Origin: Balanoglossus misakiensis
Taxonomy: Eukaryota; Animalia; Hemichordata
Reading direction: 5' to 3'
Assembly (NCBI GenBank): GCA_040954595.2
Contig: CM082595.2
Coordinates: 6,288,137-6,352,136, forward strand
Length of the DNA stretch: 64,000 bases
The notes beneath the pieces were generated by a model, which was given only the letters and a program-made list of their open reading frames with translations, ran no database searches and was not told where the DNA came from. The translations under genes were made by a program, and so were the position numbers. Below are positions 433 to 57,636 of the stretch, one piece after another; within the stretch, counting starts at the first letter, position 1; each line of letters begins with the position of its first letter.

Positions 433-594
433 CCAACAGCATATCAATAACTTTTTTCCGAATTTCATGGAACATGTCGTAACGCGACCGTGCTTTGGGG
501 ATTTCGTTCTTTTCATTCCATGATCCACAAACATAATCGAAAAAATTATCACATGGATCAACTGATGTATCCATTCTGGCAAATATTTGTTCGG
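433..594 (-). CDS. M13 metallopeptidase, coding exon 3 (gene continues beyond left edge of window)
   Basis: Polypyrimidine tract TTTTCTTTTCTTTACCAG acceptor and GTAGGT donor, 162 nt, phase 1-1. Encodes (A)EQIFARMDTSVDPCDNFFDYVCGSWNEKNEIPKARSRYDMFHEIRKKVIDMLL, with the hallmark MDxSVDPCxxFxxxxCGxW motif of Peptidase_M13_N. The catalytic HExxH lies outside the window. Confidence 0.93.
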
Positions 595-31124: not shown

Positions 31125-31154
<30 letters not shown>

Positions 31155-31167
31155 CATACATACATAC
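31125..31167 (+). repeat. (TACA)n microsatellite
   Basis: Directly visible. Confidence 0.9.
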
Positions 31168-32457
31168 TCATATATCACAAAGGAAATCTTGTCACTTTTA
31201 TCCTAAATGGCGCCCCAAATTAATCTGCAATTCAACGTCGTGAAAAGATTCCACCCGAAATTTCGACTTTGAGGGATTTCTAAGGCGCATTGTCAGTCAT
31301 CTTCAATGAGAATTATCAGTGCAAGGAGATTGAATCTTAATTTAATATTTAGTTTGAGTATTGATGGATGTCCAAAAAAAGATTTTATGGCCCCTTTCAA
31401 TTCATTAATCAGTCACCACATTTTCGAAGGTAGTCGGGAAACCTACTTGTCGTGTGCATTAAGACTCCACATCGTTACTAATGCAAAGAGGACATATAAG
31501 CAATACTCAATAAGCCTGATAAGACATGCACATTACTGCTCATGAGTGACGCCAGAAAGTAATTTAGACATAATGCGAGATTCTAACAACAATAACCTTT
31601 ATTTGTCTATAACTCTGTACAATACTTCAGAGAAAATGAAAAGGGTGGGTATCGTGCGTTGATCGATACACAGCATGCGGTAGACACATCCCGTCGGCGC
31701 GGGAATCGATGTTAGACTCCAGTGAAAGAGTGCGCAGTGCATAGAATCGGTGAAATGCTAAAGTGCGACTGCTATAGAATGCCTATCGACAGAAATAAAT
31801 TTCTGAAACTGTTTTCATTTCGCCCAACGAAAAGTAGAGCTACATTCTATCAGATCAGATGAAGGTTAAGCAAATGTTTTTCGATATTACCCGACTCAGC
31901 GGAGGGATAGATCCCGCAGATATGTTTAGATATGTGAAGTGACTTATGTCACAAGTTTTGTTTTTTATTTCTACAATCAGACATGCCCCCTTTTTATCCC
32001 AAATCTGAAGTATTATCAGTTGAGGTTCTCATCCAGTATCACAACTCTGAAAGAATCGAATGCTTTTGCTGAGTTTTGATTACACTAAAGCTAAATAGGG
32101 TACCGATCTACTTCTTCCGTCTGGAGGTACAGTTTCCGGAAAGTCGCGTTCCTTTAGATGGTGTTTGAGCGAATCCGTTCAACAGTTTACTGCAGAGGAA
32201 GCTGTAGATTGGGATCCTTGCCTCGGGGAGGTTTTTTCTGCGCTTCCGACGAAGAGGGAAAAAAGCACGAGTTTGAAAGAAACGTAGTGTGTGTCTGGCA
32301 TTTTAGTTTGATGCCTCGAGAATAAAACCGACGGACAATTAGGGGAACATAAGAACACGTTCGAAAAGTTGGGTTCAAAGAAGCAGTACTATAGACTCTG
32401 CTCGTTATCAGTGTCTACTAGAAACAACACAATACAATAGTCTTTCGAAATCAAGGT

Positions 32458-32658
32458 TTAGTGGCAACTGCCCATGAACTTCCATCCACTCCATTTGCTG
32501 TTGCAACCCCTCGGGTTGGCGTTGCTGCCGCGCTTCGCTGTGTCTTCTTGTCTGACCTCGGCTTTGTTGTATTTTTTCCAGATTTCTTGAGCCAGTTCTG
32601 ACGCAAACTCTGACACCTCTCCCTGGAACCAATCTTTGAATCTTTCCATTTCTTCAGA
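32458..32658 (-). CDS. Somatostatin/ASTC-superfamily neuropeptide precursor, exon 2 (pro-region, KR site, cyclic WK peptide, stop)
   Basis: Acceptor TTCTTTTTAATCTTACAG, phase 0. Encodes SEEMERFKDWFQGEVSEFASELAQEIWKKYNKAEVRQEDTAKR-GSNANPRGCNSKWSGWKFMGSCH-stop: a dibasic site followed by a C-terminal two-Cys peptide with a WK motif. Confidence 0.82.
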   Translation of the reverse strand, partial: SEEMERFKDWFQGEVSEFASELAQEIWKKYNKAEVRQEDTAKRGSNANPRGCNSKWSGWKFMGSCH

Positions 32659-35600
32659 CTGTAAGATTAAAAAGAACGACATAATGTAACATGATGTTGC
32701 TATATGATTTCATGCAGGTATAGGCAGACATACATACAGACAGACAGCGAAAAAGGGAGCACTGACCTTTTTAGATATTTTTTGCCCAAAAATCTAGAAT
32801 ATTCTGTCTGAGTTTAATATCGTATAGAATAGCCACCTGGCATATAGGGGCAAGCCTAATTGTCTTCGGGGCAGGTGGTATCAATTAGGGCCATCATTTA
32901 GTCACAGGGAAGCTCAAAACACCTGGAAAACGTTTAATAATTGCGCTGCCATGCATTGTGGCTCCATAATAAAGTGATCGAATTGATGAAAATATAGCAA
33001 ACGAAATCCGGACCTAATGTAACCGACGAACACAAGGGATCACTGTCAAGTAACAAATGTGGCGAACAATCCAACGTCATTACCACTCTAATCGTAGTCA
33101 ATGGCTTTGAAAACACCAAACAAGTCATCGGATTAGTAACCTGCCAATCATCTGCATGTATAGACTGTCATTTTATTGCTCGGCACATACAAGTGTTCAA
33201 CAAGCTACTTGAAAGCGTAGTCATAGAAACAGAATCTGAGTGTTTCCAAGGTTTTTTTGAAGGATGGCCCATTCTACCTGTGACATGTGTCGAACTTGGA
33301 TGTTGCATTAAAGTTATACATATGGTCACCTTTCAAATTCAGACACATTGACAGGTAACTTCAACATTGCCATTTTTGAGGGGGTGGCCATTTTTAAAAT
33401 ACCAGACAAAGTAAATTCGTCCATGGTAAAGATTTATGTTAAACACTACTGGGAAAATAATATATAGGCAAGCAATTATATGTTTCATGTTTCTCACAAT
33501 ATCCGTGGGTGTAACGACCTTCAGAAAAATATCTGATCGACCGGTGACGTGTATAAAAACCTGACATTCCATTCCTTTGCTTAGTACGGTTGTCCATTGT
33601 AACATTTTACGCATAAATGTTAATTATTCTCTCTTTTCAAACAGTACTGAATTGCAAAGAAAGTGAAAATATCATGTTGTGAATTTGCACACAGATTACA
33701 TTTCTTATTATAAAACCCTCGCTTGAAATTGTCAGAGAAGAACTGCAATGATTATGTCTGTTGTGTGTATCCAGGGCAAATGTCATCTAATCTTGTTTTG
33801 AAAAATGATCGGCTGAATTCACATATCTTAATCGTTAGTAAAGGTTGTTTGTGAGTCAATCGAAACACTTTACCACGTTGTTATGCTTTTATTGGTGTTG
33901 TTTTCTCGTCTACAATTGGGCTACAGAAAAGAGACAATGGGTTTAGGCCGGTTGCATTGACTGGCTAGGTCGTGTAAATGCCATTAATCTTGGAGGCGAC
34001 CAGGTTTCTAATTACTGCGCGATAGCATCGGTAAACTGAGAATGGAACGAACAGCGAAAAAAAACCCCGCTTTGATAGAGATCGGCTGCCATATCCTAGA
34101 TCAAGTCTGACGATTACCGAAAGCATAGGAAAGGTAATTACGCAGATAAGGACGGCAGAATAAGCGATGCACCGCTCTCCGTTGGCGTGTTCTCGCGGCG
34201 GTGTCATCGCGTCAGCTTAAATCAAGCGTCAGCCGCCGATTAATGGCGCGGAGGAAAGACGAGAGGAAACGCCAATTATGAACGGCAAATAGAAGACGAC
34301 AAATCGAGTGGAATTGATGCCCGCCGATTACCGGGGGTTTAACTAAACACATTGCCGAGTCTTCCGCATGCCGTTAAAATTGCCCGGGACAAATCGCTCG
34401 AAAAAAAAAAAAAAAAAAAATCCCCATCAATTCAATTTCTCTCAATCAGAAATCAAGTTTCGGCATTCATGAATCATTCGATTACGACAACGACGGCGAG
34501 GTTATGTCGAAATTACTCGCTTCACTTGGCTGTGAACACTGGTAATTTTTTCCCCTAAATGAAAACGACAAAATGGGATTTCCAATTACAGTGAAGTCTG
34601 CTCACGTGTACGTCGTCCCGGGCAGAGGAATTCCACTAGAAATGACATTTCCACAAAATTGAGCAAACGATCACTGTCATTGATGCCGTTTTACGTGGGC
34701 GAGATCTGAGAGGCACTAATATCTCTGATGAACGGTCGAGGATGTCCCATTGTTTCTAAATTTAGGGAGATTTTTGTAAAAAAAAAGGAAGAAGCTACAT
34801 TTAAAGGGACAATGTCTACATGTGGATGTATGGTGAATCAACGCTCGACCACGCACATTTTCCATCCCGTTTGTAGGATATGAGAGTAAAAATCTCGCCA
34901 CAATGAATAAATGGTAAAGACCGATTATTCATTTTAGCGAGTATTTCACTTTCGTGTCTACAAGTGAAGTGGGAAGGAAGTTGTGTGTGGTTGAACATGG
35001 ATTCAACATATATCCACATGTAGAATAACGTTGGCTTGTATCAAACATAATTAACGGAAAAGGGGCAGCGAGAGAGAGACTTTGTCCCTTTAAGTCATTT
35101 GCGCAACGGCGTTGCCATATGCTCACTGACATACAATTGTAGTGCCTTCCTTCCACTGCCACGGCAACAGCAATGAAAATATCCCAGATGTGCGCAGACG
35201 CTCCCTTGAGCCATATCATCCCTAGTGTTATCGTTTATAACAAAAGTGAAATATTTCTTATCAACGCCATCGTACGAAAATGAGGGATCTTTTCGGCATG
35301 TGTGCTATCTCGTTGGCATTTAACGAGTTGACGTAATAAATCGTTTTGAAATTAAAAAATGATTAAACATCTCCTTGAAACGTCAGTACTCACAGTTCGG
35401 CTGAAAGTATAAGAAAACAGATATCTGCACGCATCGTATCCGTTGACTGTATCAGCAATTCTTGTATTTAATGTGACTATAGGACACATGTTTGGCCGTT
35501 TTTCATTCAGAAAAGTAGCAATTACTGATCGCGCATTGTGATAACCCTTCATCTCTCTCAGACTGTGATAGCCAAAGAGCAGACGTTCTCTGCCAACCTT

Positions 35601-38101
35601 ATCGCCGTTGGAAAATAAAATTACACTATTTCCATATGCCTCTGTACATTATACATGGATTCAGTTTAAGTTTGTTTTCCTGGTCTGGTTGTGATTACTG
35701 GAAGACGGAAAACGTATTTCACGAAAATAATAGCATTGAAACAGAAGAGTGTAAACTTAAGCAAGAGTAGGAACGTTGGATGAACCATTGGGTTGCAGAC
35801 TACAATTTGTGTCGTGCGGAAATCTGTGTCGTACGTACAAAACAATTCCAGATGAACATCTGAAAAGTGCTTTCATTTTGTGATTATTTGGTATCGTCAA
35901 AAGGGACACAATGCTTGGAGATATTATCAACATTTGGTGATGGTGCAGATCTAGTCTGTGGTAATAGCATGTAATTGTCACATGTTTCTTAAACTTGTGA
36001 CTGATTTACGAAACTGTAGGTTTGTGTAGTTCAGTTTAACTGTGGGTCAAAGGTCGCAAAATGCAATATCGGACGTGATGCAGACCAATCACTGCAGTGT
36101 ACTAATCAGGCAAACGACTGCATGGTGCAGAATTAGACTTCCTTTCCACAGTTATTGTCGTTAGGTAAAATACAGCAATTGGGAATTTAAATACCGTTTA
36201 AATTCCATTCAGCAGAACTGAGCATGGCGAGGCTTTCTCCACCTTGCAAGGTTCATATCCTCGACATCCTAGCACAGCGGCAGATTGGCTAGCGACCTCT
36301 GCCCCCAATTTGGTTTAATAATGATGTCCCGAAGCTCTTGTGTACGATGACAACCTTGTACAGATACAGTATCATCAACCGGTCAATTTGCCTTGTAATA
36401 TCAGAAAACCATCTGTTTTATTTTTTGTATTGGGATGTCATCGCCGACGGCCATTTGTACCTCTATTTCAAATGAAACGTATTTACTGGTGTTCTTGATG
36501 AGCTCAAAGTTTCTATACTCATAACAAATGTTCTGTTCTCGTCTTGAATTGTTTCCCAACGTGGAATTATTTTGAAGACAGTAAACTAAGACAAAGGAGG
36601 TCTTTGCATCTTATAATCAAGCCAGTGGCCCTCTAACGGCATTGTGGCCATTTTCTGTGGCTTCACACTTGTTTAAATTGTGTTTCATGAAGTTATTTTG
36701 TACATCATGGAGTAAACAGGGAACATTCTCTTTTGGTATATTTGGTACATTGTGCCTGAGTAAAGTAAGTGATGGGGAAAGATAAAAGGGACTTTGACAA
36801 TGTTTATGTGATGAAAACTGCCGTTTCAGCAGTTTGGTAGTTTACCGCCAATCTGTACAAATGACATATAGTTGATATTATAGGATTGAAGATTCTGATT
36901 GGACCGATAATTTGTTTTGAGCAAAAAACCTCCAGGCAAAATTCTTGTAAATTTTAAATGTCATCGTAAATAAACTCAAAATTTTACTATAAAACTATTT
37001 TATAAAGACATGCACACATACACACACAAACATTCTATATATCTTAATTATATAATCTAAAATGCAAGCATATTCAGTCAGTTTTTATAATCCATCCTTG
37101 TTGTTAATGATTATGCGCTAAATAAATTGACGGATTGGGAAAGCCAGCTGCGAAACTGTCTGCTATTAAGTACTGAGATTATGATAGTTTGATTAGGTTG
37201 GTGTAATTTACGTTTGAGGTTGTAAATCAGACATAACAGCTTGATGACCAGGGATAGTTAATCATTTGCTATCTGACCAAGGACGGTGTGACGGTAAAAG
37301 ATGGTGGCAATTTACGCCAGCCTTGTTCATTGAAATGACGGCGGACAATAGCGTGTAATCAGTATTCCAAAATTGTGGTGTATTACTGGTAATTAATGGC
37401 GAGACTCATCTGGTTCAATTCGTGGTAACCTTTAATTTCGGAACATGAGCGTTTTCTTAAATGAACCATCATCCGTGTATGTCCAACACGTTTCCTTACT
37501 TGCCAGTGTGTTGGTACAGCATATGAAGAACGTGTTTCGTTCATTCTTAATTAAGAAACCCCAATGGTGATAGAATAATTTCAAATTAGGAAAGTGCTGT
37601 CTCTTATAGCGCAACAGATGTACCGTGATGTTTATTAACAGGCGTGAAGGAAACATTCTTCAGGGCTTTATATTCTAATGAATAGTACATTTTATCTTTT
37701 TTAATATAAATCCAAAGGAAATAATGACCGTAGACTCATAAATCACGTTTACAACGTTTTGCCGCAAAGCAACACGTCAGAATAGGCTATATTCATAAAG
37801 GCAATTGTGTGTATAACTTGTAGATGTGGCGTACTTCTTTAGAAACTTTATGGTACATGTACATGTATGTCTCTAAAGCCAACCCATTCTCCCAGTCACA
37901 CTTTTAAAGATGTCACGTCGCGTGTGTGCCCATACGACTGCTGACGTTATTCCAACCAAACCTCGTGCCGGTTACTATGTGTTTGTTTCGGTTTTGGGTC
38001 TCTGATTTCAATTTGACTTTAAAACCTTTGCTATGTTTTATGAGAATGCGTTTGTGAACACGCACGTACATGTATGTTTGTGATGCACATTGTATCACCC
38101 T

Positions 38102-38271
38102 TTAAAGGTATACGGCCACCTCCAATTTACATACGCCATATATGCCTGAGTGTTTTAAAGAACATATGGTGGCACTCGCGTGTGCCAACCACTGAAAATC
38201 TATGATTGGCTAGATCTCAATTTGCGATGGTAACTGTAGCTATACTTGCATAGGTGACCATATACCTTTAA
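38102..38271. mobile_element. TTAA-flanked MITE (Kolobok-like termini)
   Basis: TTAA-AGGTATACGGCCACC...GGTGACCATATACCT-TTAA imperfect TIRs. Homologous ends at 22658-22746 and, inverted, near 54219-54305. Confidence 0.7.
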
Positions 38272-41200
38272 TCTTGTAGGCATGCTTCTATGAACCAACG
38301 CTACTAGTTCCCAAAGCTTACTCTAAATCAATACGCTATCAATTAAAGATCTTCCATTAGGACCTTATTTGCACTGGCACTCGTCGATATTATCTTCGAC
38401 TGCGAAAGAACGTTTCCGCGTTCCGCAACTTGTCCTTTTTTAGGTGACCATTAATTACTTTGCTGAAAGGGCAAATTAATATTCGTGCTGTCAGGTCTGC
38501 TTCCCCACTTGAATCTCTGAAGTGCTGGTTGTGAATTTGCAGCCGAATGCATCGGGTGAACGGATAAACGTGTCTTCTGAGACATCTTGTGACTCTCACC
38601 GTCGCCTACACACAGTGGAAAATATTAATGACCGTTCGACTGAACCTATTCTGTCGGGTAGTGGCTGTTAACCACACTGGTTGATGTCGAATATTGGCAA
38701 AAAATGGGATCCGTGCCCCGTGCTCAGATCCACTTGTCGGCATACAACTCAGCGCTGCCCACATTCGCAGCCTTTACTGTAAGTGGCATCATTAGATAAC
38801 TCTCCGTGCTTTGGAGGGCCATCAGGCTATGCGACAGTAATGAGTCTTTTCTCTCGAAAAAAGACATCGAGAAACTTGGCTCGGAAGAAACTTGAAAGAG
38901 TCCCCTCTATTTCATTAAAAAAAAACTCTCGGTAAAGTGTACGTGACTTGTGAAGTGGTTGGCTAGTTTTACTGCGAGTCAGTCTGTGTGGTTTGCGAAT
39001 CTTGCCCTGGAAGAGAGAGAGATGACATTTCCCGGCGTCGCAGAGTGTAAGGTTAATGAAGATATCGCTATCCATTACATGGAAATAACAACAAACTTTT
39101 GCCCCCTGGCCTTGCCTGCACACTCAAAAAGAAGATGCTCAACGGTCCTGTTTTTGCCAACCCGTATATAATTGTAGCTTTAATTAAGATCTGAGAAGCG
39201 AAAGAAGATCGGAGAAGCAAAAGCAGGGCCACGTATCAGGTTTAAACTAACGAGATCACTGTGTCACCCCCTTGCTGTAACCAAAGCAGTGCAATGTGTG
39301 ATGTCGACTCGGATTATTTCCAAGACGTCTACCGTTGCTCGGTTTATTCCGGTGAGCTTTATGTAGACTTCGCAGAATTGTGGACTCTTACGCTGTGTAA
39401 TCTTGAGTGTAACATACTCATTCCATGCGTCAGATAATGCTAGGTTTCCGTTCAATTTAACAATATTATCCATCACACAAAGAAGGCTTTTAATGCCAAG
39501 TACGGCAATCACGACTTATACTGTTCCCAACTCCATGATATGTTCAATACATTATTTGTTGTTGAGTATGAAAAGTCCTTCAACTTGCATTGTTTGCTTC
39601 ATTTCAATGGAAGCTACGTGTGATTTCAAACGTTTTAGCTTTAAGTGAATCACAAAACATCACACACCCAAACTACAGTGAAACTTGTTTGAAATTTCAA
39701 AGTGTTTATGATAGAGCACAATTGTTTCTCATATTGCAATTCAAAATGGCTGCCAGTTTCTGTATTAGCTTTATGGGGAAAATTTAAATTTGTGATATTT
39801 AAGAAAACAAGACAGGGTGAACACCCTGTTTTTTATGAAAGACTTCTCCTACCCTACACTTCAATATAGCAAAGAATTTAAAGGTTTGGAGGACTATTAT
39901 TTTTCTGTCCCCAAGACACGTACTGAAGTTTGTGGAGCACGTCAGGTCTTCCTCCATCTGGCTTCGGTTGAAAAAAATAACACATTTTCCTGCACTGCAC
40001 GAAGTGAATTAATGCCACCAGCGGCATGAAGCAGGGGACTGGGGGGAAATTTAATTCCCACCGTTTCTCAAAAGAATACTCAAACGACTCCTTAGTGTCA
40101 TCTTAATTCTCACTAATCGAAAAATTGTGATTGACCCTCTGCGAAAAACCTTGAAAGCAGCTAATAGTCAGAATAGAGCAGAATATATCAGATGGAAATA
40201 TCTGTATCGTTTTGTTATAAATTTTGTTGTCGCTAATGCGTGTGTGACAAGTAATCCAAGTTTTATGTTCTGCACATACCAAGGTTTCAGTTGCTTAAAC
40301 TCAACTTACCCTTGAAAATCGACTAGAGAAAGTGCACGTTTCTTAATTTTCTGTACGAGTACAATTTTTGGCACATGCCATAAAAAAATATCACCAAAAT
40401 GTGTAAAGGCAGGGCAACAACAGAATTCTGATACACCTGACTATTCTGGATGTTTGATCTTATAACATAAATTATTTCAATTGCCTTGAGAGACAGGCAC
40501 GTCGTTATATGAAAAATCTAAAGAAAACATTAAAGAAAATGGACTGTCATGAGGAAAGGTGGATATGGAAATTATAAATTGTGGGGGAGTCGAGATAAGT
40601 GTTTACGTAATATTCCAGATCCTGTTTTACGAACATATTACTCTTATCGTCTTGTAGACGATCATTCAGAATATTTATTCAAAGAAATGTCACTTAAAAC
40701 TGCTTGTATTTGGGGGAAGATGTCTAGTACCCTCTTTACAATTACATGGTCGAAAACTCACTGAGTCCGCTCTCAACATCATACAGCTGGAGTATCTTGT
40801 CACTCAACACGTGATTTGTTGAATGGATGCTCGGTGCATGCAAACATACTAGTGGCTAGCTCGTTTTGATGTCAAAACATCGTCATATCCGAGGAGAACT
40901 CGAACACTGTAAGCCTCTGTTAACATCACGAATATTAATGTGAAGAGAGAGTAATAAATCCGGGGAAATGACCTCTGAAGTGCGCAATGGCAATTCGGAC
41001 TGGCAGCTCTCGCTGAAAATGCCCAGGGTGGATGATTCCATAATTGCGATGCTCTCGAAATGACAAATTACCAAGGTTCAAACAAATAACGATGTAATGG
41101 GATATGCGGACACGGTGATGGAAATATTAGCCATGTGGTCATTAGCATACTTAACCTATGTCGCCGAGGAATTCCCCGGTCCACCTACGGATGTTATACA

Positions 41201-44200
41201 CGTATAGAACGGGCGTCGAGATCATCCACCCGGGACATTCATTCGAGTTCCGTGTATATTGCCACTGGGGTGGGACTCGAGACAAGAACAGCTTTCAAAG
41301 TCCCATTCACCGGGAACAAAGTGCCATTCACCAGATCTCATGATTTAATTATTGCGAGACGTATGCATGCTTTTTATGACTGTCAAGAATGCCTTGACAA
41401 CCGCCGAGTGTAATCGATTTTGATCGAGTACATCAGCTTTCGAGATGCGTTTTTCGACTCTGTTTCCTCTCTCCGCCCGAATGGTTCTTGTTTCATGGTT
41501 ATCGCGAGATAATCTGTCAATTCGATCGTACAATTACTTCAGTGTGTGTTATTCATCGCTGCCTCAAAATAAAAGATAACGATGAAAACACAATCCGCAC
41601 ACCCAATTGCAAGGTAGTATGCGAGTCGATAATTAGAATTGGTGAATTTTTCCCGTTGGAAGTTTTAATATTTAATGTTAAAAAAAGATATCGATGGTCA
41701 ACAATTGTAACGTCATGTAAATTATTAAGAATGAGGCCAGGCAGAATTTCATGTTATACTCTGTAAACTTTAAATGTTATTATCAAAATTACAACTTCCC
41801 GTATATGTATTTTCAGTGTTCAGTTCCAACCTTCGCTGGGAAAAGGGTTTAGATTTTTATGGTGACCTAATTTAAGATAATTCCAAAATCTGCTGTTTGC
41901 CGACATCATCAATACTTTTTTCTTCTACCGAGCTTTCTACATTTTGTCCTTCGAATATTAACCCTTTCAAGATTTCATTTATGAATCCAAGGCCATCTGG
42001 ACTATTTGATTTATTGAATATACATAGATTAGAGAGACGGTAATCAACAAAGGGGGGAAAAACTGAAATTGGATTTAATGAGGCATCCGTTAGCTATAGG
42101 CTAGTGCCTAAGTGACAACAGCTGCAAATTTTGATTGTAGTCACGATTTTCATGCAGGTCCATTAGTTATTGTTCTACTTCCCTACGCATGTAGAAGTGC
42201 AACATTTGTGTATACGGCACATGTAGTATATTCGACATTTTCAAAGACAACCAAGAAATGCACTTCAAAAGCGAATTCATGCTACTGCTGGTAGCCTTGT
42301 ATTGCTAACGAGAGGGAGCAGTGAATAGCATAAAGTTTAACAGAAAGTACACGCTACATAGACCTTTAGCCATATCGCCCCGTTTCCATCTATTGAGGTC
42401 CAACTTTACCATAGAAAACAATAGGTTTGGAACAAACCATTGTGGTAATGGGGTAAAAGCATATGATTTTGACAGTGTGGAAAACTGGAAGTCCAAATGC
42501 ATATATTTGAATAAAAGGTCAAAACAGCGACATAACAGTAACTCGTGCGATCCTTCGAAATTATGCATACTCTTCGCAAGAAAACATAATCACTCAGATG
42601 CATTAGGAAAATTGTCGGCAAGAAATAAATAGAATGTGTGCTTTATTCTCATTTGCGATTCAATGGAAAGAAAAGCTGGGTCGTCCGAGTGCAGGGGTAA
42701 AATATTCATACCTTCCCCACAGACGTAATAATTCTATCAGTTTCAATCGCACAAATTCGTTCAAGAAACGTTAACCATACGTAGAGTGGTGTTGTCCGCT
42801 CATAATTGTGTCAACGTGCAAAATGCCACAAGGGAGCGTGAAATATCTGAAGGAGAAGAAGGAGAAGGTATTATCGCTGCATAGATCGGTTAGTTGCAAT
42901 ATTCGCTGCGTACCCCTGGGGACGGTTACTAGTTTGACTTTAATCATGATGTTTGTCGAACGCATCCGCCACGGATGGGGAGTGGAACGCGGCATTCGCG
43001 ATCGTACGCGCAATCTATTTTTCGAGACAGACGCCGGGAATGTTATCTGGTGGGCGGTGATAATCCCGTTAAAATTACAGTTCCGAATCCATCCTGAATG
43101 TTGATTATTGCGTTCACCTGGACACTGGCGCGAAAAGACGGATGTCTGGTGAAAAGTGAATAAACGCAATCCGTTGCTACGGGAATCGTTCAATAAATGG
43201 AAAATTGTAATCATAGATAAATGTTCAGCACTGAAATGACGAATCGTTTTTCACCAAGACAACAACTGAGTCTAATTTGCCACCACGGGAAATACGCGTT
43301 ACATCACCGCTGTTTCACGCCATTTTTCACCAAATCGTGAGTTTGTCAAACAACTGCTTTTGTTTGCCTGATAGACTGTCCGCAACGTCGTTTAATGTGA
43401 TTTTACAAATCGCCGAGCGCTAATTTGATTTGATGAAACCCCGTTGAAGGTGTCAGTGAAAACTAGCGCATCAGTAACTCTTGAGAGTGTATCACACACC
43501 AAGCACGTTGTGCAATTAAACCGGCCTACGCAAAGCGCATGGTAATTTCTCCGTATTTGCCAACAGCTAACATACGAACTGATACCTGCTTAATCAAAAT
43601 ACCAAAGAACAAAAGAAAGTGTGGCATTGTATGTTTCAGGTATTGTGTCAAAACCACTGTACAATACATTACATGTGCATAGATAAATTGTTTGCTTCTG
43701 CGTAAAAAGATTAATGATACGCTCAATGAATACAACAAATGTTTCATTACACATTAAAAATTGAAGCGCCTCACATTGACAGTTCAAGCTATCAGTCCGT
43801 TCCCCAGTTAGGGAATTTCTTCTGTCTATAGCAGGCTAGTTCGAGCAGTGTCTGTCTGTCTGTGTCTCTCTGTCTGTCTGTCACACTACTGGTATTCGAC
43901 AGACACGTAGGTTTTCATGTGTTGTTCAAGAGAGTTGCACTCTCAACCAATTTATCGATATCACGCATTCCACTGCCAAGCCTATGACAGTTTATAGCAA
44001 CGGCTGTTAAACACTTAGGTTGCCGCCTAACATCTTCGATCAAGTGAAGCTTCTTTTGCAGTAATCTTCCATTGCAAATCTTTACACTTAATATGTCAAG
44101 TCAGATTTTTTCAAAAAGGAAAGCTTTCTTAGCTTCTTTCCCAGAAATAGGAAGTATCGACTGAGGACCAATCAAGAAATCGATTTTGGGGGATTCTTGT

Positions 44201-44690
44201 GACTGCAAGAAAGGAAAGGAACCATCTAAACGATCAATACCTTCCCGACTTCTTTTTCTTCGGGGCTACCCTGACATCCTCAGGGGGTAAGCCACCATTG
44301 CAACGACAAGAAAAATGCTTCTTCGATCAAGCTGTCCTGTTTATTACCGGTAAACAAGTATAAAGTTACAGCTGCTTTGGATCCAATTTAATGTAAGCAA
44401 GGAGAGATTTATTGATTGAGAAACACCTGTTCACTTTTCCATGGGGCAGGAGTAAGTAATCACTGCATCACCTGAGAGAAAACAAATCGTGTTTCCTCCA
44501 ATGTTCAACTCGGAGCAGGCAGGACAACTCCTAGTCTGGCATCCTTCCTTACCGCACCCGGAAATGGACTTACCGGAACCGGAAATCAACTAATCAAACA
44601 CAATTCGTCTGTGAATGTGGCGAAGTTATTTCATGTTACAAAATTACAGATGTCTCAAACATTGTCCATATATATCATTTGTCTTCAAAG

Positions 44691-45036
44691 TTAAAGTAGT
44701 GTACGCCTCAAAAAGTAATAGTCTTAAACCTTTTGTCAAATATTAGTCAGTGCAACTTTACATTATTCTATTTTAAATTGCGAATAAACAACTAGGGGTC
44801 AGCATGGAAAACTTTGAACGAGAGCAAATTGTATCAAATTTAAAATTCAAAATGGCCACCAATCTCTGTGTTAACTCTATGGCGAAACAAATAAGTTGTA
44901 TTTTTTATGAAAGTAAGAAGGTTAACCGTTTTTAAAAAAAATATCTCATAAGGACCTTAACATAGCAAAGAATTGGAAGATTTTGGAGCACTATCTTTTT
45001 TCTGTATATCTGTCCTCAAGACACATGGTACCTTAA
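44691..45036. mobile_element. TTAA-bounded non-autonomous DNA transposon (degenerate)
   Basis: TTAAAGTAG...GTACCTTAA ends. Internal AATTCAAAATGGC..C....TCTGT.TTA.CT.TATGG shared with a partial copy at ~39735-39922. An inverted left-end-like fragment lies at ~2940-3038. Confidence 0.5.
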
Positions 45037-48000
45037 ATATAGCTGTTATGCAATAGTTTCTAAAAGCAATGGGTCCTGAAAGCATCCTCGAAAACAAACT
45101 GTTGATAGAATTATTAAGTCTTGGTTGTGGAAGTCTAGCGTTTAAACTGGGAGCGGATTAAACAATACTCTCAGCAGCTGGTTTCCCTCATTAAATTAAA
45201 AGGTTGGTGCACTAGGCATTACTGTCATCTCAGTTAACGCTGCATGACGTTTGCACTGGTTTATGTGTCAGTAATTCAAATAAATTGTTTAATTGGTTTG
45301 CAAGTGGCACACTAAAAGACAACTAAGATATTATCTTGCGCGATAAGACAAAACAATAACTGCATAACAATCAATCAATATTAAATATAGATATTCCACT
45401 GAAAAATGATAGTTATGATTCCAAAGATTTAATACTGATAAATGTAGCCCATTAATTTTGCATGCAACTTATTGCGCAGATTTGTCATACGTTTGAAGTA
45501 AAGGAGTCTAAGAAAAATGTCATAAATTTGTTTTCGCCTGAGTACACGTAAAGCGTGGGTTTTATGAATTTCAGCTGTCAAAACCACAATATTTGCTTTG
45601 CTTGAGCTAATGTTGAAGTTTATCGAAGATTTTTTCTCATGGTTTCTTATGAAAAAGGCATTGTGCGTAAAGGTGGGGGGTAAAATGTTGTAGTATAGTG
45701 TCAAATTGTTTGAATAGGAGATGTATACATCCTTTATCTAACTTATCTAGCTTTATTCAGTTGTTATGTGTAGAATACTTCAAAGGCATCAGTTTCTATT
45801 TGGCATACAGACTGATATCAAAACAGTCCAATAATCGTTATCATTCAAATAACCAGTTCCAAGAAAAACAGAATCAGCTTATGGCAAATAAAATTGAGTC
45901 ACCGTGAACCTGTGTGGTGGTACTGAGTGCCCTAAATTGGATAAGCAAGCCAGTAAGCAACTTTGAAAAATAATTCATGAACCCTTTTGTTTTAACTTGA
46001 AAATGTGCCAATTATAATCGTGAAAAACGTCTGTAGTTACAGACTCTGTCTGATATTTCATTGGTTCTTGCCATATCTGATTGTAATATGTAAAAGCATC
46101 AGCGATGAATTTCGAAATATTTCACATCCATACAATCATTTTTGGTTAGTTTGAATACTAGTATTCATTTATTGGTTATTTATCTAAAAGACGTCAGATA
46201 GATAAACTTATTAAATTAAACATGTTAATGTAGGGATTCCCGTGGACTCAATGCTCACTCGTACTTTGTCGGAACTTGAATATCAAAAGACTAGTGGCAG
46301 TAAGTTTTAATCTGTTCTGTCAATTAGAATTAATCATACGCATATTAAAACCATTCAGTGTGTAAAGCGATTGTCTCACAGCCACGATTCTAACCTCTTT
46401 GTTTGAAAAAGCGCAGCTTCCCTGAGCGTCAATTTTCCGCCGCTAATAATCGATCTCGACGTTTAAGTATGCATTTATTCGCCATCTCTATTTTCACGAT
46501 GTTTTGAAAGTAAAGATGCCAGCGCCCTTGTGCGCGATAATTAATTTGCTGAATCCCCGATAACAATGTTGCGTTTGCACAAAAGTACACTGGTTATCTT
46601 CTCAATTTCCTTCCCTAAGAGTGGATTATACGATGCCGAAGGATTCGACACGTATGCTGCTTGCTAATGTTCTGCTTTGAGCGAAAAACATGATTGTCGC
46701 TTGATTATTATCTGAAGATTTTTTAGCTCCCATACATGTATTCACATTGTTCTGGTGGGTTTCATTGAATGTATGATTTTCCTCTCATTGTGAGATTTGA
46801 CGAGACTTGGTTTAATTATTGTAGCAAGCCGTTGCTGGCAGAGAAATACAAGTCAAACTTTGTGTGAGAGTAGAATAGGTGAGAGTGTAAAAACAAATTT
46901 GAGTTTCGGTTAACAACTGTTTAGCTCATTAGATTTTAGATGGCCAGGCTTTGCTACAGGTTAGAAATTAGCACATCCCTTCCCATGAAACTTCAACACT
47001 CAGAGTTTAATGGCTGGGTGTTACTCTCAATCCAATTTATTGTGATGTCAAAATTAGGTATTTTAATTTTGTGTGGCAAATCCATTTCCTCTAACAACAC
47101 TTGATAAACTTTGAGCAGTTATCTGTTCTGCTTGATGTTTTTTTGTATTTCTGTTGGCAAATGTGATGACAGGCATTTATTACTCGTTTAGAAAGAATGG
47201 TGACATAAAACTGTTTTTAAATATATCCTAATCGGGAATTTAAGTGCAAACGTGCGCGGTGAATGATCATGTGAAACCAGTTTAAATTAGTCTTTACTCT
47301 AAAGTTCCCGCACTTTACTTTTCTTTTTATACCTAAAGGAGATGGTAATTTTCTTACTTTGCTTACAGAAACATTAAGACATTGGTCATAATTCAGAGTT
47401 CTACACACACACCGCTTGTAGTCATACGCTTTGCAATTAAAAGTATCAGAAATCATACGAAAGATAATGACTGTGCCAGTTAAGCAATGTTCAATTCAGG
47501 CCGTTGTGATTTTAATATCACACATACATTTGTAATTCATTCACAAACTTGTAGGGGACTATGATGGATCACAACAATCCATAATAATGCTGTACATCAT
47601 TTCCAAAGTGTACACATTGCAGTAATCACATCGTCGGCGCATATCTTCTACTATTTTCCTTTTCATGATGCATTAAATGTACCCACTAGAGTTGACCTGT
47701 TCCATAGTGTACTATAGGTAGATAATGTCAAAGGCCGGGTAATAAGCATATTGTAAATTAGAATACCCCCAAAATGAACCTTCAGTGGCGATTCTGGCTG
47801 TGGTTTGTTGAATAGATGAGGGCCTTAAAGGACAGTGCTATGCGCTGTTATCATCGGTGTAGTTTTCGTTGCATTTCTGTTATTAAGTAGTCATCGCAGG
47901 GAAAAGGGGTCGTAGAATCAAATGTAAGATGTTTGGAGCCACGACGTAATGGATTGAAAAGCATTCTTGCTATTATCGCTCTCAAAGGATGGCCCCTTCC

Positions 48001-48069
48001 ATTCAGGAATTCACATAGAATCTGCTGCGGGTTTGACCGGAATGAAAGGCCAGTCATTTGTGGCAGGTT

Positions 48070-48162
48070 TTAACCCTTTCACCCCCAGTTCCCTCTGTAG
48101 CGGTCCAACCTTACCATAGAAAGCAATGGATTTGGACTGGACCATAGTGACAATAGGGTTAA
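48070..48162. mobile_element. Short TTAA-CCC...GGG-TTAA MITE (piggyBac-like termini)
   Basis: TTAACCC...GGGTTAA ends. Core GGTCCAACYTTACCATAGAA recurs near 42397 and, inverted, at 13657-13749. Confidence 0.6.
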
Positions 48163-48950
48163 GCGATGACTGGCTCTGATCGACCATGATGATTGACAGA
48201 TGGCAAAAGCACTTGATACTTGTAATTAAATAGACACATCACATACAACTGGAAAAAAGGGGTCCAAAACGGAATTCTTTTTAGATGAAACATGTCTTCA
48301 GCTGGCGACGCATCTGTCCAGTCTTTGAAAGAAACAATTTTTTTTTTCAAATAGATCCTTTGATACGCGTCACAGTCTCTCTTCTATAGCGGTTTATGGC
48401 TTTGAGGCGAGAGTTTTTGGTTGACGTTTGGAGTTTCTTTTCACAGACTCACGGACTTTTCCGCGACACACGCGCGCCTGTGGCAAACGATTTTGCTACC
48501 AGTGAAAGAGACACAGCGGCAACGCTTAACTACAAACGCCCACATAATACCATGGAGATTTGAACGGCATCCCTGAATGGCGAGACAGTTGCAGATCTAG
48601 CCTGCGAAGATGATTCGCTCAAAAAGGAGTTTTACCCTAAATGTCTAGAACTGAACGTACAATAATTTAAACGGCTAATGCGCTTTATGACATTTCCTTC
48701 TCCTCTTTATCTGATGGACGCCTGCGCTCTACATCGCAAGATAGAGATTTCTTTGATGAAAATTCTGTGAAACTGAGAATTGCAGCGACTTTATCTTCAA
48801 TTCTCGTAAATTTAGAAGGTTAATACAATAACGGTCTGTAATTTGCAGATGTCACATTAGACATTCTTTTCAATTAACGTATTGCAGTTGAAATTAATAG
48901 CAATTACGTTTGCAATATATATACAAGATATGTTTCAAGTTGTGCAAATA

Positions 48951-49034
48951 ATGTATGTATGTATGTATGTATGTATGTATGTATGTATGTATGTATGTAT
49001 GTATGTATGTATGTATGTATGTATGTATGTATGT
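48951..49034 (+). repeat. (ATGT)n microsatellite
   Basis: Perfect array of about 21 units. Confidence 0.95.
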
Positions 49035-52000
49035 AGAGCGCGTGAGTATATCTGTGTGGGTTATTTTTATCATAAGTTGTGCCTAAGTAATTGCGGGGTA
49101 CACGTTGAATTAAAGAACACATCTGATCAAGCATTTTGATCTATTATGATAGTTTTATCAACCGATAACTGCGGACCATTTTATCAATGCCACCCACGTC
49201 GTCGTACCACGAGGCTTGTGTGTCCACATAGGGCACGACTGCTTTAAATGTGAGGATGTCGCTTTGGAATTGGCAGATTATCTGATGCGCGATGCGGCAT
49301 ATATATATTGCCCTGCATAATCTTCTATTTAATCAAACATTGGGAGGTCGGGAAATGTGAGGCTGTGAACCACCCCCTGAGGAGTTGAATTATCGAAGCA
49401 CAAACTCTGATATAGTTAAAGTGAGGGCCATTTTATCTGATGATAAGATTGAAGGGATTTTTGATGAATACAATTACGCGGCCATGACAATTTCGTTGCA
49501 AAGGTTTTCAGCCAAGATGACACGTTTTATATGTTTTAGTATTGACAAGAAAATGAGTTGACCTTTTGTTTGGATGTAAAGGATGTAATTGCCATCTTTC
49601 TCATTATTTTTTCTCTTCGTTTTATCGATAACATAAACGTATTGTAGGATTTAACAGGCTAGATTGATGATCGCTGAATGTCAACTCAACATTGTGTACA
49701 GACAGGAAGTATGACTGCAAAATGCTACAATCACGTTACTTCAATCACAAGTCATCTGTCGGAGGGCTGATTTCTTGGGGAATGGGTCCAAGACCTGACA
49801 TTGTGGAAGGTTTCTGTGAACAGAACTACATAATAGACGTTTGCTAGCAAAGATTTTAATTGATGCAAACACTGACGTGAACAGATTTTGTATAAGCGAT
49901 CATATTCTACATGTAGTACATCTGTAATAACCAACATGAAAAGTAAAGCATTTCATACTGGAAAGAAGATTCCTTCAACTGTATTTTCCTCTCATACCTA
50001 AAGATCCCAATACTTTTGTGTCTTTTGATCGATAAAGTTTTCTATGCAGTATGAACATTGTTGATCAGCACATTTGTGGTTATATGGGTCATGACTAGCA
50101 AGATGTGTCACCCAGCATTTCACTTAGTTGTCTAATGAAAATCATTTCTAAATGCACAAAAGGCACTCAAAAAGGGAAAGTACTTTTAATCTGAATATAA
50201 CAAACTTCGATGCAGAACTTAGGCATTCAGCTCGTACAAAAAGTTCTTAAAAGCCGATAATGTTGTTAGTAAGAAGATTTCAGAAGATTCTAGTGGGATA
50301 AGATTTAATGGGGGCTATTTCATGCACATAATGGGCTATTAATTGATTGTCATCACAAAACGTCAATGCATGTTACACAAACTGACATGTACCATCGATA
50401 AGGGGGTCAATCAATAATTGTATCCCAAGTAACATGAGTACTAAAGTGAACAGCATTTTGGCACATTGTCAACATGCAAGTTCTTCAATTGATTCTATTC
50501 TTTGACATTATCAATAATGTACATTTTTGGAACAAATAATGATGTTCGTCGTCTATTTTAAGAAACCTGCTATTTGTGGTAGCTATATTGAAATGTTGTG
50601 TGTTTCAAATATATTGACTTCCATCCCAAAAAGTACTTCTGGATATCATCAGATTTATTGTTGAAAAGGATTGGATGTCCAGCGAGGATCATGCAATGAT
50701 ATTGAATGTCAGAGAGATTTTATTGTCAAGTGCACAGCCATGTAAATAATGCATATGCTGCTGTTTTTTTCCTCTTTCTTGCCTAACATTTTAAAAAGTG
50801 AATAGATGAAATGGCCGGCCGTTAGAATCAAAGGCTCATTTGACATTGTAATTATTCCAATTTATAATTTTAATCACGTAAAGACAGCAATTGATCGACA
50901 TCATTCAATGAATTCTAATAAAAGAAGTGTACTTGAAAAATAATGGAATTAATGATGTTGCAGGGTGCCAAGGTTTTCGAGTCTGTGTAGTTTTCTAAGA
51001 AGGCTGAAAAATGCGAAAAAATTGCTCATTATTACATAGCCATGTGTCGTTTTTTGCATTTTTCGTCTACGTAACAACTCGACGCCCGGCCGTTTCCCTC
51101 CCTACTCGCTGCAGAAGCTATGACGTTCTCACTGTCAATCATTCCCAGTGAACTTGATCCGTGTATGAGTTGCAAGCGACAAATTAAACCTACTCCCAAA
51201 ACGAACAAAAAGGGCAGGCCACGTTCTGTATGTTTGTGTTTCCTGTTAACCCGTTATGCGAGTAGGTTAATGAAACCAGCGCACACATCAGCAAACCCGC
51301 ACAGTAATATAAGCATGCAAAATCTTTAAAAAAAATCGCTCCATATTTAAACGACGACGTTTGTCTTCCGTTAATTACTTTTCTGCGATAAAGGTCGTAT
51401 GGTGTCATTAAAAGCCTACAAGAAAATTAATCGACTGTCGGACTAAGCTGAAAAGGTTCTCACTAGGCAAACATATAGGCAAAGACTGCAGGCTCACTCA
51501 TTCGTCATATTCCCATTGCTGAAGTGGGCTGGCGTCAAGAATTGTGGTTTCCTGACTGACCAATAGCGAAAACCGAGACTCGCACAGCACATTTCATGAA
51601 TCTTACAGCGGGGATCTTTTGTACGAAATCTCCCCTCCCCACGAACTGGGAAGGATGGGGCGAAGACAACCTCGTGTGGCACAGTATTTTTTCCAAAATG
51701 TGTTCTTTCAGTATAGGGAAGCATTTTGCTGAAGTGAAAAACCGACAAGAAGAAACCGCATTCGATGACGACATGTTGACATTTAAAGGGAACATTAGCA
51801 GCGCTCTTACAGGCGATACCAGAGGCATGTACAGCAGATTGCTTGTCGCTTCTGTCGCCCAATGTCTGGAAGTATTATTGATTAAAGTTTCACGATAACT
51901 CTGCATTGGAAGGTGGCAAAACATGTTGCATTAAAGATTTTTATCTGGGCTCTTTAACATTGAGCATGAGATAACTGCTTGCAACAGTTTACATTAGTAT

Positions 52001-55000
52001 GTATGGTTGCGTGTTTCTGTTGTGTGTGTCCAAATGTTTGCACATTTCTCGAATCGTCGCTTGTTTTTAACCGTATTATTAGCCATTGCATATATGCCGA
52101 TTGGCTTTCTGAGCAATTGCACATTGCGAATGAATGCATGGTTACCGGTTGATTTGATATTGTGGTAACCACTCATGCCAGTGCCCACATATTCTTTTCA
52201 GTCATGTGATTAATTAAGCATGATTGAGACAGTTCTGACGACTGTAAACGACGGCTAGGCAGAGGAAACGGCCAGTGGTTTTAGCGTCGTTTGGACGGAG
52301 GGTGGCGTCTGGTCCCGTGGAGTTCACAGAGAGTGCCGCTAGATTGTCTGCCGATTTCAAGACGTCGACGCAGATAGATGTCTTTCAGTCATAAAGCATA
52401 CGATTGCGACAATAACTTTTGATAAAACAGAGACACCTAGCAGATATTTCAGAAAATGAACAAAATTTATGACCATGCAACGAAATGCGTGTCCACGAGA
52501 TCTGTTAATCGGGCCAAATTGAAATTGACAACGTGCATCCCCCTGCCATGCGCGCTCCCCGCAGTTTGATAGGTGATGATGGGACGCCATGTAAATGTTT
52601 TGCTCTTAATATCGTCGTATTGCGTGTGCTTTGGCATCAATCACTCTTCTAAGCATTTCCCAGCATTTGCAGCTAGCTTTATGGTGACAGATTATCAATA
52701 GGCGACGACAGGATTTGACGTACGGAGGGGCGAGCCTCGGCAGGTGCTTCGAAGTCATAAAACTGTCCTCGGAGCGAGGGAATAAATTCTACGTGATGTG
52801 ACAATGCTCAGAGGGTAACACAGTGTTTTCAAGGGAGGTAAAAATCCGACTCGTTTTAGGTTGGCAAAAAAAAAACGCTCCGGAAGGGAGTGTTTTTACA
52901 GCCATGTTTTCAACACGTGGACGCGTCATAAACGCGATAAGCATCCTAACAGATGGCGCATTTCGCAGCGTCGTAAAAATGGATTGTCGGAGATAAGGCG
53001 GACCCCTCGCTATTTTCCCCACGTAGGGGCACTTAGGCACCCTGAGTAACAAGCATCGTCAATTATACGGCAATCCGACAATAAACACTTCAGCAGTGCG
53101 CCAGTAATTAAATTTATTGTTACGGCACTCGAGAAACGCCGAGTGAAGATGATATCACGTTCCGACGCGAGCACTCGGGGATGCGGAACGAGAATGACTC
53201 CGCATCGAGCGTCACGCCCAATGAGTCCACCAAAGGTGTCGCATCAAAACCCACCGATCCAAACAACAGACGGCTCTATTGTCAGCCAGCAATGAAATGC
53301 AATATAATACCCCGAGCATTCTAATACACGTAATAGTCTGTTTCAGCCAGCATATCTGTCACAGCAGCGGAAACGATGACAGTTATACACAGACATCTCT
53401 CCTTATACGTATTTTCTAATTGATATCAGGTTTCATACTGAATAATCTGCTTGTTAAGAACCAAAAACCACTGTTTATCGCAAACATGCTTCCTGCGTAT
53501 TTCTGTAATGAGCCAGCTGAAGCTTAACTTTCCAGTTTACTTATTAACTTCAACATCAGTAAGCTCACTTCTCCAAACGCAAGCTTGCAGCTGAAAAGAT
53601 AAGACTTTTCTTTATTTTTGAGATGATCGATGTGAAATATTATGTTTAAATTTAGCAAACATCTTAGGTGTGGTGTATGTTTCAAAGTTTTGCCTGGGTT
53701 CTCAAGAAAGAATATTATGTACGTGCCCCAATCTTGTAAAATCATTTACTCACAACTGATTCGTAATATTGTGCTCATGTTCACTCGCCTTTGATTTCAC
53801 ATTAATTACCTAATGTAGAATTCTATCTAGCTATTTCTGCCAAGAAATGTACGAAAAGAGTTTGTTTAAATATCCTAACTGAACACTTCAGGTCAGATGA
53901 ACTGGAGTACCTTGACAACATGTAGACTATAACAAAAGCACAGGAACTCAAACGTTGACATAGATAATTAATTGACGAAATGTGCAAAGTTCGCAGATGA
54001 TAAATATAAGTGTGCGGTTATGGATTCTTTTGCTTGAATCTTACGCATGTACCATGACAGCTTTGCACTAGGTTTGTGAGTTGTGCGTAGACAGGCACTT
54101 CGAATAATAAGACACATTTTTATTAGGTTGATAACATGAGATTACATTTATCCACTCTGTTAGCCGTATCATCATCAGCGTTGATAGAATCTTGACTATC
54201 ACTCTAGATACCCGTCAGTTAAAGGTATGCGGTCGTATAATGTCCATTTAGCCATTGTTACCATAGAAAGGTGACATTTAGCCAAGCATAGATTGTTATT
54301 TCAGTGAAAAATGCACAATCAAATGGTCATTTAACTAGGCCCGTTCACCAGATGTGAATATATCTAATTTAGAGGCAATCGCATTGCTTTAACGAGTATC
54401 GCAATTCGTCGGGAAAACCTTGGCTTTGGAAGAGCGGGCGAGTGCTCGCTGGGGGAAGAGCGACTCAAGCGCCGACATCCTTAAGTGATCAACCAAGAGG
54501 AACTTGATAGCGAACCAAATTGGGTTCAAATCGAGCAGAGACTTCACCAAATTGGGTTCTCGCTCGCCAACAGCTAGCATTGTCTTAATATTGGTTTAAT
54601 GGCTCGGATGAAGCACACCGAATTGGGAAGCAATCACGCGGCAGTCAGTTGGGAAGCCATCCAAATTGACCGTAATTTCTTGCTTCGTTTCTTCCACTCT
54701 AGCGGCAATGAGTTCGCCCTGGGTATATTTGCTTTAAACGTGATACCCCGATGCCAGGTCACCAGGGAAAACTTTCACAGCCTTATACATGTCACACGAT
54801 ATGTAACACCGAAAGAGGTAATTTTCTCACTGCTGATTTGCTATTTGTTAAGGTTGTAATATGTTTAATCTTCGTCGAAATGTGGAAAGTCACGATGTTT
54901 TGGAATGGAAAGTGGACATTTGGGAGTATTGTAGCGGTTGGGTGAGATGGAATTGCTAATACTGAAAATGGGAAAGCACAATATATGAAGCTTTGCAGAC

Positions 55001-55004
55001 TCAC

Positions 55005-55118
55005 CTGTGTTATTTCATTTTCCATTGTGTCTTCTTCATCAGGCACGAGACTTTTGCTGTGTGTCATATAAACACAAATACTTAGAAGAACCAACAAACT
55101 AAGCAGACTGTTATTCAT
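55005..55118 (-). CDS. Somatostatin/ASTC-superfamily neuropeptide precursor, exon 1 (signal peptide + acidic pro-region)
   Basis: Encodes MNNSLLSLLVLLSICVYMTHSKSLVPDEEDTMENEITQ (114 nt, 38 codons) and ends CAG|GTGAGT, a consensus phase-0 donor. TATA box ~220 nt upstream of the ATG. Confidence 0.8.
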
Positions 55119-55338
55119 GTTGATGTGACTTCTTCAGTTGTCTGGTGTAGGGTGACTAGGTTAGGCGAGGTTATGGTCTGGTGGTCAGGGTTGCCTGTTG
55201 ATATGTCGGCCAATCTTCACCCGATTGTCACTTGGGCTGAACTTCTGTCGCAGTTTTCACGTCTCCCTCGCACCACACTGTTGGTCGACTCGGTTGCGTT
55301 GATTCAACTCTTGTGTGTCGTCAGCCGGGGGAGATCTG

Positions 55339-55507
55339 CTTATATATCGACGCTCACCGCGCTCAAATCCGGGGACTTTTTTTTTTTTAAATAACGACCA
55401 GCCAACTTCCGCCTCGCTCCCACGGTATGCAAATGAAGGGGAAGAAGCCGGGCATTGGGAGGTAGTCATGGCGACGGATACGTCACGTGGACAGCGAGCG
55501 TGATTGG
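55339..55507 (-). promoter_or_regulatory. Proximal promoter of the neuropeptide gene
   Basis: TATATAAG (minus, 55346-55339), octamer ATGCAAAT (55427-55434), CRE-like TGACGTA (minus, 55485-55479) overlapping E-box CACGTG (55484-55489), and CCAAT (minus, 55507-55503), all in a CpG-rich stretch just upstream of exon 1. Confidence 0.65.
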
Positions 55508-57439: not shown

Positions 57440-57636
57440 ATGTATGTATGTATGTATGTACATGTATGTATGTATGTATGTATGTATGTATGTATGTATG
57501 TATGTACCGTATGTATGTATGTATGTATGTATGTATGTATGTATGTATGTATGTATGTATGTATGTATGTATGTATGTATGTATGTATGTATGTATTTAT
57601 GTATGTATTCACATGTATGTATGTATGTATGTATGT
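57440..57636 (+). repeat. Interrupted (ATGT)n microsatellite
   Basis: ~200-nt array with a few interruptions. Confidence 0.95.

Follow-up and report, generated by a model that had tools for sequence, protein, structure and literature searches.

We report here a small neuropeptide precursor gene on the minus strand of a 64,000-nucleotide stretch of the hemichordate Balanoglossus misakiensis (assembly GCA_040954595.2, contig CM082595.2, positions 6,288,137 to 6,352,136; hereafter the window). It consists of two coding exons, and its product of 104 amino acids (aa) ends in a single peptide whose two Cys enclose a Trp-Lys pair. It is probably a hemichordate somatostatin (SS)-type gene, in a divergent Gly-Trp-Lys form. 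A more specific proposal, that this is the first hemichordate SS-type precursor and the ligand of the orphan hemichordate receptors of the SS/allatostatin-C (ASTC) type, with a ring reading W-S-G-W-K instead of F/I-W-K, is in our opinion slightly favoured. In this proposal, SS-type precursors would have been missed in hemichordates so far because of that very ring sequence.

Coding exon 1 (55005..55118, minus strand; 114 nt, 38 codons) ends at the donor CAG|GTGAGT. Coding exon 2 (32458..32658, minus strand; 201 nt including the stop) follows an acceptor composed of a pyrimidine tract and TTACAG, and encodes the rest of the pro-region, a Lys-Arg (KR) pair and the mature peptide. The GT..AG intron that separates them measures 22,346 nt (32659..55004) and lies in phase 0, and an in-frame stop is found five codons 5' of the ATG. 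These exons, splice sites, phase and 104 codons are those of the original prediction, which had been made from the letters of this stretch, and they agree with a protein from a second species that runs continuously over the junction. When exon 2 by itself was used as the query of a protein search, one match was obtained, the only candidate: XP_077998533.1 (75% identity over the whole exon, E 2.7e-24), an 'uncharacterized protein LOC144451532' of 104 aa that was modelled automatically by RefSeq in the acorn worm Glandiceps talaboti. Although exon 1 was absent from the query, residues 1-38 of this protein match it (26/38 identical) up to the Gln that precedes the GT donor, which makes the match an independent test of the splice. 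Full-length identity amounts to 77/104, gap-free over the exon junction. With XP_077998533.1 as query, tblastn recovered precisely these two exons (E 7e-8 and 5e-31), with no match better than E 1.4 elsewhere in the window; its residues 1-38 scored 131 on exon 1, the runner-up among 127,768 six-frame positions reaching 30.

A simple scan of the intron proposed four candidate in-frame internal exons, none of which was matched by the Glandiceps protein, and no Pfam match above cut-off was found among the intron's scanned open reading frames (ORFs) of at least 55 aa. The general motif of a basic pair, a Cys ring and a stop occurs 10 times in the window as against a mean of 9.6 over 30 shuffles, which is chance level; when Trp-Lys is required inside the ring, the window has one occurrence and the 30 shuffles have 0. 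A second, tandem ring-peptide gene was sought within the window and not found. Judged from these comparisons, the two-exon model is correct and describes a real neuropeptide precursor.

The Glandiceps gene is an orthologue by every measure used: its product has the same length, the same KR, the same Cys pair and the same Trp-Lys, and it differs by two indels of 2 residues each, which compensate one another and flank the KR site. It carries no family name. The conservation of the KR...C...WK...C segment in a related species, which had been named as a check on the first model, was thus found in this second animal. Gene callers had been expected to miss genes of this kind easily; the Glandiceps orthologue was called, but it was left unnamed. 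On sequence grounds, XP_077998533.1 is the sole credible relative found.

The precursor begins with a predicted signal peptide (aa 1-21; 55118-55056, minus strand), as had been claimed: hydropathy points to it, and the small-x-small site ending at Ser21 is conserved in both species. The pro-region of 58 residues, of which aa 22-38 are encoded by exon 1, was described as acidic and is so, with 17 acidic and 7 basic residues. It is followed by a predicted convertase site, Lys-Arg at aa 80-81 (32530..32535, minus strand), conserved in XP_077998533.1, and by the predicted mature 23-mer GSNANPRGCNSKWSGWKFMGSCH (32461..32529, minus strand), with Cys at 32505 and 32466 and Trp-Lys at 32484-32479. In both species 12 residues lie between the two Cys, with Trp at ring positions 4 and 7 and Trp-Lys at 7-8; four residues separate the Lys from the second Cys, and one His follows it. 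An Arg-Gly before the first Cys is kept in both despite the two-residue indel, and a basic residue stands at -8 in the window and at -6 in Glandiceps. Convertases may also cut at single basic residues according to the monobasic cleavage rule. By this rule, the conserved Arg-Gly and the upstream basic residue would allow a second cut after Arg88 (32511-32509), giving a 16-mer beside the 23-mer. AlphaFold modelled the last 33 residues as a hairpin with strands 20-24 and 27-31, in which Gly-Trp lies at the turn and the two Cys are in register (mean pLDDT 63.7; 79 over residues 21-30).

A second conspicuous element is an invariant block in the pro-region (aa 45-68; 32569..32640, minus strand), which is identical at 24/24 residues to XP_077998533.1 and ends near a Lys-Lys pair; the spacer after it is identical at 4/13. 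The block appeared as a helix in a low-confidence model of the whole precursor (mean pLDDT 58.5). Its amphipathy was not significant, 748 of 10,000 shuffles reaching the same value. Its role may be that of a sorting helix or of another active peptide. We also observed an I-W-K triplet within the block (32640-32569, minus strand), ahead of the Lys-Lys pair. By eye, the pro-helix resembles the pro-regions of vertebrate SST (F-x-x-E-L-x-x-E) and of echinoderm SS2; a rough estimate puts this resemblance within chance, and it was set aside as a lead only.

Concerning the family, Koch et al. (2022, PMC9048919) describe a Cys loop with Trp-Lys as common to all SSRP-type members, the residue before Trp-Lys being typically, not universally, aromatic or aliphatic. 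The loop sizes given there are 10-15 residues for SS/CST and echinoderm SS2, 4 for urotensin and protostome SSRP-like peptides and 6 for ASTC. The hydrophobic N-terminus, the KR at 80-81 and the peptide running to the stop point to a secreted precursor with one C-terminal peptide past a basic site. Its Cys loop, closed by a predicted disulfide, contains Trp-Lys and counts 12 residues in both species, within the 10-15 range, and a single phase-0 intron lies in the pro-region. Ring size, Trp-Lys, the spacing from Lys to Cys and the terminal position of the peptide thus agree with the original prediction that somatostatin-type is the best-fitting family; the Gly before Trp-Lys had escaped it. ASTC and echinoderm SS1 were considered and rejected, as the ring has neither F-x-P nor any Pro, and its loop is 12 residues long versus 6 in protostomes or 10 in SS1. 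The phase-0 intron after a Gln, which had been put forward as an SST-like mark, is indeed present, but counts for less than was supposed. Phase-0 introns have been described as common to SS and ASTC genes, spiralian ASTC included, and so do not discriminate between the two. Since exons usually end with the codon CAG, the Gln before the donor is weak evidence.

The genomic neighbourhood offers a further lead. The window holds 353 stop-free frames of at least 55 aa, of which 323 were scanned against Pfam, the other 30 being left out for overlap with the two exons, with a 404-aa ORF or with simple repeats. One of the 323 passed the curated cut-off, an exon of an M13 (neprilysin/ECE-family) peptidase (433..594, minus strand; 162 nt; PF05649, E 3e-12) with splice sites present, on the same strand and ~32 kb past the stop of the peptide gene. 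M13 enzymes are known to degrade neuropeptides. Against PDB, this exon matched neprilysin (E 1e-5) and ECE-1 (E 5e-4), and was nearer to neprilysin over 36 residues. The M13 gene runs off the window, within which no upstream exon was identified. In starfish, the SS2 gene (chr18, 8,907,785-8,939,261) has an ECE2-like M13 gene 35.7 kb away according to Dataset S1 of Zhang et al. (2022, PMC8851493), a table that holds only genes with reciprocal orthologues. The same source places M13 genes on the chromosomes of amphioxus SS and scallop ASTC as well, there megabases from the peptide gene. The M13 neighbour shared with starfish SS2 is a lead, not proof.

Several observations weigh against an SS-type assignment. 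The residue before Trp-Lys is Gly in both species, where the members described in PMC9048919 have F/Y or I/V/L, and the nearest upstream aromatic residue is a Trp three residues earlier in the ring. Neither the FWK/IWK motif nor the Gly that follows the Lys in echinoderm SS2 is present, the ring reading G-W-K-F; we therefore do not file the peptide as canonical SS2 or SST. The Trp occupies ring position 7, versus position 5 in the compared chordate SST/CORT and most echinoderm SS2 (by eye). Conservation is higher in the 24-residue block (24/24) than in the Cys-to-Cys stretch (12/14), and the hairpin model adds little, as any 12-residue Cys ring would tend to have its turn near the middle. The M13 gene is in tandem here and head-to-head in starfish, its orthology to the starfish M13 gene is putative, its family is multi-copy, and two other starfish neighbours, LIG3 (3 kb from SS2) and CAPZB, were not seen in the window. 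Neither the exon 2 search nor a profile search (1 of 42 candidates) yielded an orthologue from Ptychodera or Saccoglossus, where it may be unannotated, diverged or lost. Pfam gave 0 families for XP_077998533.1 and for the 23-mer, and PDB sequence searches gave 0 and 7 non-significant matches. In phmmer, 1.84 billion representative proteins returned only XP_077998533.1 and two multi-stretch proteins. The top Atlas matches (a bacterial hypothetical protein, DUF4543, PWI) were unrelated and below trust level. Urotensin clusters ranked 8, 14 and 19 of 30 with scores of 0.77-0.78, also below that level. So diverged a member could escape searches of this type, and we infer that their blank outcome says little. 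SS membership is, because of the Gly ahead of Trp-Lys, called probable rather than established.

Other candidates from these searches were discarded. The two additional phmmer matches were long proteins aligned in 7 and 5 stretches, the 7-stretch one being a tandem repeat. A metagenome scan gave 127 matches to the pattern; the only one to pass was 13 residues long, lay in a reading frame unrelated to the peptide and was attributed to chance. A fold search with the 33-mer gave 2 matches, both with E above 6.

Among the alternatives, the one that deserves most attention is a hemichordate-specific neuropeptide unrelated to somatostatin, in which Trp-Lys would be convergent and the ring, the invariant 24-residue helix or both would act on another receptor. 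The lack of any database link to a known family, the Gly before Trp-Lys, the 24/24 conservation of the helix block and the restriction of the gene, as found, to two enteropneusts speak in its favour; ring size, Trp-Lys, Lys-to-Cys spacing, terminal position, intron phase and the M13 neighbour nevertheless all fit an SS-type gene, and we consider this alternative unlikely. We regard as less likely still a member of the SSRP family on the urotensin-II side, acting on a urotensin-type Gq-coupled receptor. An aromatic residue follows Trp-Lys here as it does in urotensin rings, and three urotensin/UTS2B clusters figured among the 30 Atlas matches, but their scores stayed under 0.8, the loop of urotensin and protostome SSRP-like peptides has 4 residues versus 12 here, and the human UII/URP genes are described as interrupted by several introns, one of which is in phase 1 and falls in the N-terminal part.

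A diverged precursor of the MCH type, paralogous to the MCH reported in Saccoglossus, would account for some of the overall layout: published ambulacrarian MCH precursors also have ~90 aa and one C-terminal ring past a KR, and of the two Trp in each of their rings the second precedes a basic residue. The specific marks of that type are missing, namely Met/Ile after the first Cys, Asp at +2, a basic residue next-to-last before the second Cys, a 10-residue ring and a tail of 4-6 residues; here Asn/Ser follows the first Cys, Gly is next-to-last and the loop has 12 residues. A Saccoglossus MCH that fits the pattern has already been described. We give this explanation very little credence. Even less remains for the idea that the exons splice otherwise or that the Glandiceps match reflects a mis-predicted model. 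That record is an automatic model, but two diverged genomes lead to the same 104-aa product, with no gap at the junction and with an exon 1 match that stops at the GT donor.

For the SS-type gene that we prefer, the following mechanism is probable as a whole; we infer all of its steps beyond the gene structure. The signal peptide would direct the precursor into the secretory pathway. A convertase cut after KR would release the 23-mer, and perhaps a further cut after the Arg of the conserved Arg-Gly-Cys the 16-mer, like the long and short somatostatins. The Cys pair would close the hairpin with Trp-Lys at or beside the turn. The peptide would then act, in a manner dependent on Trp-Lys, on hemichordate G protein-coupled receptors of the SS/ASTC type, its Lys docking on the TM3 Asp as in SSTR5, where published structures have the Trp-Lys core at the pocket bottom and the Lys paired with Asp3.32. 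If starfish SS2 and chordate somatostatin are a guide, the output may be inhibitory, that is muscle relaxation and reduced secretion: starfish SS2 is reported to activate ArSSR1-3 and to relax tube feet and stomach (PMC7536072, PMC8851493), and amphioxus Sst-like to mark gut endocrine-like cells. The gene would be an orthologue of echinoderm SS2 and chordate SST/CORT in which Ser-Gly was inserted between the aromatic residue and Trp-Lys.

Zhang et al. (2022, PMC8851493) state that hemichordate SS/ASTC precursors had not yet been found, though the receptors exist. Koch et al. (PMC9048919) added Xenoturbella, and their supplement contains neither the hemichordate names searched for nor the ring motif. 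The word 'somatostatin' is absent from the text of a 2023 paper on the Saccoglossus nervous system and of a 2026 Schizocardium atlas, and a full-text search with the peptide motifs brought up irrelevant papers only. The titles and abstract openings searched contained no report of a hemichordate SS precursor; subscription journals lay mostly outside this scope, and an earlier mention is possible. The peptide thus provides a concrete and easily synthesised candidate ligand for the orphan hemichordate SS/ASTC receptors, and a single synthetic peptide would put this published gap to a direct test; this concerns the SS half of the question and leaves the ASTC half unanswered. Among the outgroups of chordates, hemichordates are the closest to have a bilateral adult. 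The gene may also serve to probe nerve cells and the endocrine cells of the gut. If the more specific proposal holds, SS-type signalling would be fixed for the ancestor of ambulacrarians, and a natural agonist would be able to do without an aromatic residue ahead of Trp-Lys. A natural Gly-Trp-Lys agonist would also inform the somatostatin pharmacophore. The gene would extend a known family; it does not represent a new kind of system.

Around the coding exons, a TATA-like box (55339..55346, minus strand; consensus match only) is located ~230 nt 5' of the ATG within GC/CpG-rich DNA, and the 227 nt between this box and the start codon contain no other ATG. A CRE/E-box-like site (55489-55478, minus strand) is likewise a consensus match only, and the frequency of the CRE-like 8-mer in the window is that of chance (12 found versus 8.0 expected). 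Over and upstream of exon 1, from 55000 to 56750, the GC content is 0.46-0.52 and the CpG observed/expected ratio ~1.0-1.2, with TATA-, CCAAT- and CRE-like motifs. Candidate polyadenylation signals (31598..31969, minus strand; AATAAA at 31969 and 31603, motif match only) lie ~490 and 855 nt past the stop. On the strand opposite to theirs, in the interval that separates the peptide gene from the M13 exon, we noted the 404-aa ORF, a single lysine/arginine-rich frame (17959-19173, plus strand) without a Pfam family above cut-off. It matched only Ptychodera flava (62%) and Saccoglossus kowalevskii (41%), 2 among 7,994 candidates scored and both uncharacterized, and it may be contained in the 5' portion of the M13 gene. 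The nearest relatives of this ORF and of the peptide gene are hemichordate; the identities point to an enteropneust other than Glandiceps, Ptychodera flava and Saccoglossus kowalevskii, in line with the invertebrate deuterostome that had been supposed as the source. Elsewhere in the window we saw a tandem repeat of two 155-nt copies (87% match) and three TACA/ATGT microsatellites (60340-60644; 48951-49035; 57440-57636; 31125-31167), as well as a weak Tudor-domain match (11357-11683, minus strand; E 0.002, below cut-off) that is probably due to chance.

Among known systems, echinoderm SS2 as described for starfish (ArSSP2/ArSS2; PMC7536072, PMC8851493) shares many features with the present gene: a precursor of ~100 aa (102 in ArSSP2), a single C-terminal peptide past a dibasic site, a 12-residue ring with Trp-Lys, an N-terminal extension ahead of the first Cys, a single phase-0 intron, a gene span of tens of kb and an M13 peptidase within ~35 kb. 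Its differences include those already counted against the assignment, F/I-W-K-G versus G-W-K-F and ring position 5 versus 7 for the Trp; furthermore, SS2 has at least six residues after the Lys where four are found here, and the searches run detected no similarity between the precursors. With chordate SST/CORT and the amphioxus SS-like precursor (XP_035697900.1), the gene shares Gly-Cys at the start of the ring, Trp-Lys, Ser-Cys at its end and the phase-0 intron (by eye). Vertebrate SST/CORT also have four residues from Lys to Cys, and CORT a one-residue basic tail; a one-residue tail after the Cys is also found in several echinoderm SS2. The chordate rings, however, have 10 (vertebrates) or 13 (amphioxus) residues instead of 12, with F/Y before Trp-Lys where we find Gly and, in vertebrates, Thr after the Lys where we find Phe.

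Urotensin II/URP and the SSRP-like peptides of protostomes and Xenoturbella (PMC9048919) have Trp-Lys in a Cys loop, too, with an aromatic residue after the Lys in urotensin, but their reported loop has 4 residues, their genes have more introns and the protostome forms have long C-terminal tails. The ambulacrarian MCH type (PMC4772807, PMC9793003) resembles our precursor by its small size, its KR site and its C-terminal ring with two Trp; the C-M-D start, the W-R-x-C end, the 10-residue ring and the longer tail described for it are absent here. As for the length of the gene, Dataset S1 of Zhang et al. (PMC8851493) lists spans of 31.5 kb for starfish SS2, 15.4 kb for amphioxus SS, 64 kb for SS1 and 43 kb for scallop ASTC, so that an intron of 22 kb is ordinary for the SS/ASTC family.

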